Origin: Chloroflexota bacterium
Lineage (GTDB): Bacteria > Chloroflexota > Anaerolineae > Anaerolineales > Villigracilaceae
Direction of reading: 5' to 3'
Assembly (NCBI GenBank): GCA_016866215.1
Contig: VGNE01000006.1
Span: 36,631-100,630, forward strand
DNA length: 64,000 nt
Under the pieces are notes generated by a model. That model was not told the DNA's origin and ran no database searches. It worked only from the letters and a program-made list of their open reading frames with translations. Position numbers and translations under genes: made by a program. Shown in pieces: positions 51,307 to 54,300 of this stretch. Position 1 is the stretch's first letter. Every line of letters starts with the position of its first letter.

Positions 51307-54300
51307 ATGGCTTTCTGGAAAAAACCTCTCCGCCTCGGCCTGCAAGCCCGCATCAGCCTCCTGGCTGCCCTGGGGTTGGTGCTTATCTTCACATTTATGA
51401 TATGGGAAGAGAGGCAGATCGCCGATGCGAACGCGGAGATGGTATTACAGGAGCGTTTGAATCTTGCCCGCGTTATTGCCCAGCACCTGGATCAGGACTT
51501 GGAGCGGACGCTGAGTCGCCTGGCTCAGGTGACAGCCTCCCCTGCCATAAACCTGGAAGATAGCGATCTGGAACCAGAGAAGGCAGAACTGCGCGCCCTC
51601 TACCGCCCCGACTACTTTAGTTACGTCTTCCTGCTGGACAAGGATGGCTTGGTGCTCTGGACAGAGCCATACCTGCCCGATGTCGTCAACCGCGAGCACA
51701 TAGACTGCCCCCACGTTCAAGGGACTCTGTACACCGGCGAACCGTCCATTGCCCACGTGCTTCATGCCCTCACCCCCCTGAGTCCAGTGGTTGCCCCAGT
51801 GGCGCCCATCCGCAATCGGCAGGGCGCGATCGTAGGGGCATTGGGCGCGGCGATAGACCCATCTTCTCCACCCTTTGTCAGTATCTTTGAGGGCATGGCT
51901 CCGGGCAATACGGGCTATATCCAACTGGTGGACGAGAATGGCATCGTCCTGGCGCACACCGAGCGTCAGCATCTCTTTCAGAAAAGCGAGCACGCCGATC
52001 TCTTCCTTTCTTTACTGAAAGAGAAAAGGTCTTCTATCGCCACCCACACCGTGACCGAGGAGGGCAAGGGCACCTTTAGCGAGGTCGTCGCCTTTGCGCC
52101 TCTCACGGTTGCCCCCTGGGGAGTGGCTGTGGAGCAGGATGAGGCGGAGTTTTTGGCGCCCTCCCTGGAGGCGAGCCGGAGGATGGAGCTCTTCGCTGTG
52201 ACCGCCATTGCTGTTGCTTTCGTCCTGGTCTGGGTCACCACCCTCAGCGTTATCCGGACAGTGCGCAAACTGATGGAAGCTTCGGAGCGTATCGCCGCGG
52301 GCGACCTGTCCACGCCGGTAGCCATCTCCGGGTCCGACGAGGTGTCGGAACTCGGTCGAAATTTCGAAACCATGCGCCGCAAGTTGGCGTCGTGGGGCGA
52401 GGAGTTGGAAGCGGCGGTGCAGAAACGTACCCGCCAACTCTCGGTGCTGTACGCAATTGACCGCGCCGCCGCCCAATCACTCGACCTCGAAGAAATTCTC
52501 AACGATTCGCTGGACAAGATACTCGAGACGCTGGAGGTCGAGGCGGGCGGCGTCTATCTGCTCGAGCCCGATGGCGAGACGCTGACGCTGCGCGTGCATC
52601 GCGGGCTGCCCGACGAATTTGTAACGAACGTGCGCCGAATCAAATTAGGCGAAGGCATCTCCGGTCGCGCGGCGGCGGAGAAAAAGCCAATCACCCTCGA
52701 CGTTGCGGAGTATCCCACCGCGCGTCTCGCTCCGTATATCGTGCAAGAAGGTTTCCAAACACTCGCCAGCACGCCACTCCTCTCCGCTGGGGAACTGGTC
52801 GGCGCGCTGAATGTTGGAACGCGCCGCCCGCGCGCCTTTCCTCCGGAGGAAATGGAACTGCTCACGTCCATCGGCCAGCAACTGGGCGGGGCGGTGGCCA
52901 ATGCGCGGCTGCATCAGTCGCTGCTCGCCTCCGAGCAGGAATACCGCACGCTGGTGGAGAACGCCACCGAACTCATCTGGACGCTGGACATGGAGGGGCG
53001 CTTCACCTTCGTCAACCGACAGGCTGAAGAGGCGAGCGGACACCGGGCCGAAGACTTGCTCAGCCAGAGTTTTGCCCCCATGATTGCGCCGCAGGATTTG
53101 TCTCGCATTCAACAGATTTTCCTCGAGACCCTGGCCGGCAAACCGCAGAGTTACGAGGTGGGTGTCTATCGCGCTGACAGCAGTATCTTCTATCTCTCCG
53201 TCAACACCACACCCATGTACCGTGACGGTGCGGTGATCGGGACAATCAGTTTTGGGCGGGACGTCACGGCTCAGCAGGAGGCGGAGGCCGCGCTGACACA
53301 GCGCATGGCCGAACTTTCGGCGCTGTTTTCAGTTTCCTCAGCGATGCGCGGCACAAAGAGTGTGGCTGAAATGCTGCCCGTCATCCTGGAGCAGACCGCG
53401 CGCGTCATCGGCGCAGACGGAGGCTCGATCTTTCTCGCGGAGGCGGAAAGCGGAGAGTTCGTATGCCAGACGGTTTACCCCCCCCCCCCCCCCCCCCCCC
53501 CCCCCCCCCCCCGACGGGGGGGGGTAAACCGCCACCTACCAGGCAAGGGGATCATCGGTCATGTGACTCACACCGGACAGGTTCTCATGAGCCCTGATCT
53601 CCCGCAAGACCCGCTGGCGCAAATTTCTCAGGAAGAAGCCATGGCCCTGGCTGGCATCCGCAGCAGCGTCACTGTGCCATTCAAAATCGGCGAGACCGTG
53701 ATTGGGGTGATGCACCTCGGCACAGTCGAATCGAGGACATTTACCGAGGCCGAAGTGCACCTGCTCACCACCATCGCCGACATGGCCGCAAATGCCATTT
53801 ACCGCGCCAGCCTCTTCGAGCAACTCGAACACCGCGTCCACGAACTCTCTACCCTCTTCGACGTGGGGAAGATGGCGACCGCCAGCCTGCGCATTGAGGA
53901 TGTCCTGCAATTCGTCGCCGGCGCAGCGACGGAGGCGGTACACGCCGAGGGGAGTTATATTTTTCTCTGGGACGAGCGCGAGGCGCGATTGGTGCTGCGC
54001 GCCTCACAAGGCTTCTACACCGAGCACGTGGGCCGCATGAAGTACCGTCAGGGCGAGGGGCTGTGCGGCTGGGTATTTCTGGAGAGCCGAACCGTCAACG
54101 CCCCCGATCTGGCCGCCGATCCGCGCTGGAAGCGCGACCCTGAGCACGAGGCCGCGCTTCCCACTGGGCAGGCGGACAACGCGCTGGTCGTCCCGCTGGT
54201 CGTCGGTGAGAAAGCACTGGGTGTGCTGGGCGTGGTCAACAAAATCGACGCGCCCGTGTTTACTGCCGGCGACGAATCGCTCCTCACCACCTTGGCCGGT

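Follow-up and report, generated by a model that had tools for sequence, protein, structure and literature searches.

A stretch of 64,000 nucleotides (nt) from contig VGNE01000006.1 of a Chloroflexota bacterium (GCA_016866215.1), referred to here as the window, carries an open reading frame (ORF) on the forward strand at 51292–54906, which encodes 1204 aa from a TTG codon or 1199 aa from an ATG at 51307. Its Pfam domain order is dCache_1, HAMP, GAF, PAS, GAF, GAF and HD_5/HD, with scores above gathering (GAF_2, 209.8 bits in three stretches; HD_5, 154.5 bits), and the gene is predicted to encode a GAF-domain HD-GYP sensor of cyclic di-GMP (c-di-GMP) signaling. A full-length orthologue (P0005) has 1202 aa and shares 61% identity. 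The second GAF domain (GAF2; forward strand, approximate limits 53362–53826 from alignment and an AlphaFold2 model) carries a long homopolymer tract within a palindrome, whose reality and length are the subject of this analysis.

In the letters of the window, 53478–53512 is a run of 35 C, comprising the last base of a Tyr codon, 11 Pro codons and the first base of an Arg codon on the forward strand. It is followed by GAC (53513–53515) and nine G (53516–53524), in the context CAGACGGTTTA-C35-GAC-G9-TAAACCGCCACC, as a preliminary description of this DNA had it. That description also placed inverted GGTTTA and TAAACC brackets around the tract (53472–53530, GGTTTA-C35-GAC-G9-TAAACC); both are present, but the repeat extends further. 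A repeat search and hairpin folding define a left arm, CGGTTTACCCCCCCCC (53471–53486, forward strand; CGGTTTA followed by nine C), which pairs with a right arm, GGGGGGGGGTAAACCG (53516–53531, forward strand; the nine G followed by TAAACCG), over 16 nt with 100% complementarity, and 7 of the 16 arm positions lie outside the homopolymers. As single-stranded DNA, the tract of the window folds at -18.9 kcal/mol (z -4.1) and a version with 11 C at -21.8 kcal/mol (z -5.9), within an overall range of -18.9 to -22.6 kcal/mol and z of -4 to -6. Elsewhere in the window, no run of C or G exceeds 7, and the counts of C-runs drop about fivefold with each extra base, so that a run of 35 did not arise by chance. 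A perfect 16-bp palindrome, built largely of C and G runs and placed in a coding loop of a genome with 52% G+C, thus stands out as a real feature.

Such symmetry raises the possibility of a functional hairpin, acting as RNA or DNA in attenuation, RNase processing or recombination, or of an in-frame copy of a mobile palindromic repeat. The perfect stem with its seven non-homopolymer positions is unlikely to be accidental, and the fold is stable. Nevertheless, we consider a functional element highly improbable. The palindrome occurs just once in the 64 kb, and the loci retrieved for comparison have it nowhere but at this site, so that a dispersed element was rejected; the tract has no T-tail and received no terminator-like call, and a scan of the whole window (1–64000, both strands) at the Rfam gathering threshold returned zero RNA families, so that a terminator or known RNA was likewise rejected. 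The palindrome is also absent from relatives at 71% identity or less, and a one-off template-switch mutation at a quasipalindrome would give the symmetry without any function. Mutations of this kind, familiar from Escherichia coli, convert an imperfect palindrome into a perfect one in a single event. They offer a plausible origin for the arms, and explain their origin only; no close relative without the palindrome was found among the sequences compared.

A protein search with the sensor returned a 744-aa match (P0007), 93% identical, that ends exactly at the tract. The members of its cluster, their contigs and a scan of JGI metagenome contigs yielded eight further assemblies of the locus, one of them from Logan and the others from two JGI sample series. 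Four of the nine contigs span the tract. The window reads A-C35-GAC-G9-TAAACC and is in frame (1204 aa); Ga0194126 (IMG 3300020603; L019) reads A-C15-A-C12-GAC-G8 and splits the sensor into 760 + 439 aa; Ga0172369 (L001) reads A-C11-GAC-G8-AAAACCGCAACC, split into 744 + 439 aa; and Ga0172371 (L020) reads ACAGTTT-C12-GAC-G8, where a TAA stop leaves 731 + 439 aa. Two contigs open with junk sequence that runs into the tract: 92 nt and then C19-GAC-G10 in Ga0172370 (L002), and 86 nt and then C19-GAC-G11 in Ga0172368 (L021). The remaining three begin just downstream, Ga0194113 (L003) at window position 53545, Ga0194119 (L022) at 53620 and Logan SRR7053050 (L023) at 53621, that is, 14, 89 and 90 nt past the right arm. 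In 5 of 9 assemblies the contig is therefore broken at the tract or no more than 90 nt away, and no two assemblies agree on the run lengths. Two sample series and two strains are represented among the six assemblies that contain the tract; all six have the arms and the GAC core (identical in 6/6), with no fewer than 11 C and 8 G (G-runs of 8, 8, 8, 10 and 11 in the five other than the window). Identity to the window is 100% for L003 and L023 and 99.98% for L022, all three being of its strain. Apart from the tract itself, L019 departs from the window at just four positions, all far upstream; the window and L019 thus represent the same strain from the same lake, though their tracts differ.

At the face value of the assemblies, three of the four spanning versions are out of frame and the window alone is in frame. 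Where the frame is lost, gene callers report the downstream ORF (MSPDLPQD..., 439 aa, 53587–54906, forward strand), which holds part of GAF2, GAF3 and HD-GYP, as a separate gene, and three sister assemblies accordingly annotate the sensor as two genes (731–760 aa + 439 aa). NCBI nr and JGI/IMG list P0121, the 1199-aa product with its 11 prolines; an exact look-up of the window protein matched no entry, whether the form of 1204 aa or that of 1199 aa was used. Because of the tract, public databases annotate this gene in conflicting ways, and both the deposited 11-proline protein and the split-gene annotations would mislead as printed.

The recurrence of the tract bears on whether it exists at all. 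The preliminary description had raised two-color poly-G, homopolymer tailing and fold-back chimeras from multiple displacement amplification (MDA) as sources of an artefact. The whole tract would then be artefactual, and the real gene would have an ordinary loop. Artefacts of poly-G and poly-C are common, the inverted repeat gives the locus a fold-back geometry, and contigs break there, a long G/C homopolymer being tied to contig ends as it is in two-color data. The HiSeq 2500, however, is a four-color instrument, so the two-color explanation does not apply to data produced on it. The window-identical contigs come from Lake Tanganyika samples; IMG samples 3300020220 and 3300020603 belong to a depth series of 24 samples from that lake, sequenced on the HiSeq 2500 (2x150 bp, insert ~240 bp, spin-kit DNA) and each assembled separately with metaSPAdes 3.12 (10.1101/834861). 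MDA is not described for the Tanganyika samples, whose DNA was extracted directly (10.1101/834861). In addition, the tract is internal to four contigs, and independent samples show it at one and the same place in the gene. Complementarity ends after 16 nt, the unique flanks are not inverted-duplicated, and both are collinear with the orthologous gene; a tract internal to a collinear gene, with only 16 nt inverted, is not a fold-back chimera. Six assemblies have in common the arms, GAC and minimum runs of 11 C and 8 G, and about 23 nt are required at the site to satisfy both the frame and the loop length of homologues. An entirely artefactual tract is accordingly extremely improbable, and neither the two-color nor the MDA proposal fits.

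The length that the tract should have can be judged from related domains. Translation confirmed the in-frame Y-P11-RRGGVN of the preliminary description; in full, the segment reads CQTVY-P11-RRGGVN-RHLPGKG. In an AlphaFold2 model of 53335–53880 (mean predicted local distance difference test score, pLDDT, 84.8), the tract residues (49–65 of the model) form a low-confidence loop (pLDDT 54–61) between a strand (42–48) and a helix (72–80). Judged by the model, such a site could tolerate insertions, and nothing in it demands one. The loop was aligned with nine orthologous GAF2 and the two sister GAF domains, then with 11 further related domains (20 related domains in total), among them the nearest relatives with sequence at this position, such as P0128 (71% identity, C-terminal 536 aa), P0131 and P0130. 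The window exceeds them by exactly 8 loop residues (24 nt), an insertion absent from all 20 related and both sister domains. The excess had earlier been put at 27 nt, one codon too many, so that a run of 11 C rather than 8 restores the spacing; the underlying idea that the C-run is an expanded short run gains support, both from the effect of removing 24 nt and from the C11–C12 of other assemblies. Removal of 24 nt leaves C11/G9, encoding Y-PPP-RRGG-VN, or, at equal length and frame, C12/G8, encoding Y-PPPP-TGG-VN, and these are, to within one base, the run values of the shortest spanning contigs.

Relatives at 71% identity or less have no proline-rich or glycine-rich loop at this site, and the palindrome is therefore lineage-specific. 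Orthologues with an unrelated loop and no C-run, which had been named in advance as evidence against an expansion-prone site, are indeed what is seen in everything at this distance. A scan of GTDB genomes found no close relative (top match 29% identity). At least three consecutive prolines, the criterion for stalling relieved by elongation factor P (EF-P), occur in the window (P11) and in the shortest versions (PPP or PPPP), and ribosome stalling is predicted from sequence for either.

The same comparison can be turned on the opposite proposition, namely that the true tract has at least 35 C in all populations and that C11, C12 and C19 are collapses by an assembler or read corrector. Homopolymers near the k-mer length form self-loops, which assemblers collapse, and the severe degradation of reads around the tract might imply something worse than an 11-mer. 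This proposition is very unlikely, given that the loop length of homologues fits C11/C12 exactly, that two independent spanning contigs share the same short total length and that related proteins show nothing comparable to a loop insertion of at least 11 prolines. The observed lengths of 11, 12, 19, 28 and 35 also do not fall at the usual SPAdes k values; since they match neither k nor k+1 of that series, k-mer collapse as the sole cause was rejected on reasoning.

The sequence adjoining the tract bears marks of error. The 92 and 86 nt that precede it in L002 and L021 are degraded copies of the true upstream sequence, 62–65% identical to it, and their alignment scores exceed those of all 200 shuffles. 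Substitutions in this junk are mostly A>G and C>G, raising the G count from 34 to 57 of 92 bases, a bias that is a base-calling signature and not a mutational one. Miscalls also appear in contigs that pass through the tract: L001 has T>A and C>A directly after the run, and L020 has A>C and G>A directly before it. These two contigs, which represent the same strain, differ at 12 of 8196 positions, and 4 of the 12 differences fall inside the 45 nt of tract and arms (binomial ~5e-7); L001 and L002 show zero differences over 3809 nt downstream. With flanking bases miscalled and junk attached, the tract lengths cannot be trusted, and the technical unreliability suspected in the preliminary description is borne out by contig breaks, adjoining junk and clustered flank miscalls alike. 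Calls of +/-1 nt are untrustworthy at this site, and real ON/OFF switching by +/-1 nt, though possible, is not claimable from the present data.

These marks bear directly on whether the tract is a contingency locus, a reading that the preliminary description set beside an artefact without deciding between them. Under that hypothesis the C- and G-runs slip during replication, populations carry C11 to C35 and G8 to G11, and most differences between assemblies are biological; the sensor toggles between a full-length and a split form (~731–760 aa + 439 aa), and the proline loop varies when in frame. G/C runs of at least 8 are the classic substrate of slipped-strand phase variation, and a homopolymer of this kind lies in the coding region in 6/6 assemblies (at least C11 and G8). 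As in the phase-variable genes of Neisseria, Campylobacter, Bordetella and Mycobacterium tuberculosis (glpK), a coding G/C run of at least 8 nt is present, +/-1 nt truncates the protein, and in-frame and out-of-frame versions are both on record. Taking the assemblies at face value, length switches the frame between full-length and truncated products, each assembly with the tract gives its own length, and the frame is lost in three of the four that span it. The encoded residues form a disordered surface loop (pLDDT 54–61) that could accept length changes, and heterogeneity within a population would itself break de Bruijn assemblies.

Several observations fit slippage poorly, however. Slippage changes run length only; it accounts neither for the junk of ~90 nt with its bias toward G, nor for the substituted bases in the non-repeat part of the arms, nor for the A inside one run. 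The sister samples of one series give C11, C12, C19 and C19, with the long values only at contig ends that bear junk. Bacterial phase-variable tracts span ~7–20 nt; C35 is far beyond this range and far longer than any phase-variable tract known to us. A survey of homopolymers (PMC2831843) supplied no length limits of use for this comparison. Downstream of the tract, the two strains differ by 4 synonymous and 4 non-synonymous changes, and the ratio of non-synonymous to synonymous differences per site (pN/pS ~0.3) gives no sign of decay, although 8 substitutions carry no statistical power; over the whole sensor gene the ratio of the corresponding substitution rates (dN/dS) between the strains is ~0.27. 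Unlike known phase-variable genes, two complementary runs here form a palindrome, no length polymorphism is reliable, and the host is a free-living, Chloroflexota-like lake bacterium with a c-di-GMP sensor as the affected gene. We thus regard it as possible but rather unlikely that the paired C/G palindrome is a genuine slipped-strand switch, in which +/-1 nt splits or restores the sensor and the disagreement between assemblies is partly real heterogeneity. If true, it would represent phase variation of second-messenger c-di-GMP signaling in an environmental, uncultured freshwater Chloroflexota lineage, in which contingency loci are, to our knowledge, undescribed.

The observations are accommodated better by a real but short hairpin whose length has been inflated. 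The palindrome CGGTTTA-C(~11–12)-GAC-G(~8–9)-TAAACCG is real and lies in the GAF2 loop between strand 2 and the next helix, and the true loop would read approximately Y-PPP-RRGG-VN or Y-PPPP-TGG-VN. As printed, the 35 C and 11 prolines are probably not the true length; most likely they reflect inflation of about C11–12 by sequencing and assembly. We infer, with a probability of roughly 0.6, that a lineage-specific palindromic homopolymer hairpin of ~C11–12/G8–9 has been inflated to C35 by hairpin-induced dephasing followed by assembly.

Illumina sequence-specific error sites provide the closest precedent. At these sites an inverted repeat longer than 8 bp is associated with consecutive miscalls starting from the repeat, which tend to echo the preceding bases, and coverage falls locally (Nakamura et al. 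2011, PMC3141275). The present arms form a perfect repeat of 16 nt, and the corresponding symptoms, seen here indirectly, in assemblies, are contig breaks (5/9), junk contig ends of 86–92 nt and clustered flank miscalls (4 of 12 differences in 45 nt). Unlike the published sites, the stem is mostly homopolymer, so that lag would also shift the apparent run length. In the proposed mechanism, the 16-bp G:C-rich hairpin would stall single-base extension during sequencing-by-synthesis, and reads arriving from either side would dephase at it, run on within the homopolymer and then degrade. Forward reads would yield a clean left flank with an over-long C-run, and reverse reads a clean right flank, the G-run, GAC, an over-long C-run and finally noise, which L002 and L021 resemble. 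A de Bruijn assembler would then either stop or fuse forward with reverse reads at no fixed register in the C-run, and each assembly would thereby end with a different length. Speculatively, the C15-A-C12 of L019 may be run-on left reads glued to a true A-C12-GAC-G8.

Several points weigh against this interpretation. The dephasing step is deduced entirely from symptoms in assemblies, and 24 nt is a large inflation for simple lag. The junk is biased toward G on the plus strand, equivalent to C in leftward reads, whereas simple lag after a G-run predicts carry-over of G in those reads; as an account of the junk, a simple lag model was rejected because the bias is opposite to carry-over from the preceding run. 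Runs of C11–12 or G8–9 are long enough to slip in vivo, and the length differences could be partly biological. The window is in frame, an outcome that a random artefact would give one time in three, and the platform record, which covers the Tanganyika series, lacks the second sample series (3300013123–38), for which a literature search gave a MAG identifier and no platform. In practical terms, the site is a combined hairpin and homopolymer trap, where short-read assemblies are unreliable for both tract length and reading frame.

Around the sensor, identity to a second strain forms a mosaic. The second strain derives from samples 3300013123, 25, 36 and 38, and the window was compared with its contigs L001 and L020. 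Across the ftsA, ftsZ and AlkZ-like genes (45449–48989) identity is 84–85%, whereas it rises to 99–100% over the stretch that starts at the S58 peptidase gene (49868) and closes shortly after the sensor gene (55013). Beyond 55013 the window and the second strain share no homology: DUF6198 and an S8 peptidase follow in the window, and a 534-aa protein without a Pfam hit and an amino-acid permease in the second strain. This pattern suggests recent exchange of a block of ~5 kb between lineages about 15% apart in housekeeping genes. As the tract lies inside the exchanged block, its presence in both strains attests to real DNA but not to long-term conservation.

Within the block, the dCache-coding part (~51468–52267) is an exception, at 83–93% identity with a proportion of synonymous differences (pS) of 0.24 and dN/dS of 0.26. 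In a different protein, P0011 (939 aa), the dCache variant of the second strain is joined to an unrelated C-terminus. It looks as if paralogous sensors exchange the ligand-binding dCache module as a cassette.

Two smaller observations concern the contigs themselves. The far end of L003 (Ga0194113_10099564, 2554 bp) lies at window position 56098, inside the S8 peptidase gene, and no homopolymer of at least 7 occurs near that end. A second cluster of differences between L001 and L020, four within 13 nt (L001 5609–5621), falls at sensor codons ~203–207, where the products read GYTQPVDENG and GYIQLVDENG, and is either another local error hotspot or a patch of micro-recombination.

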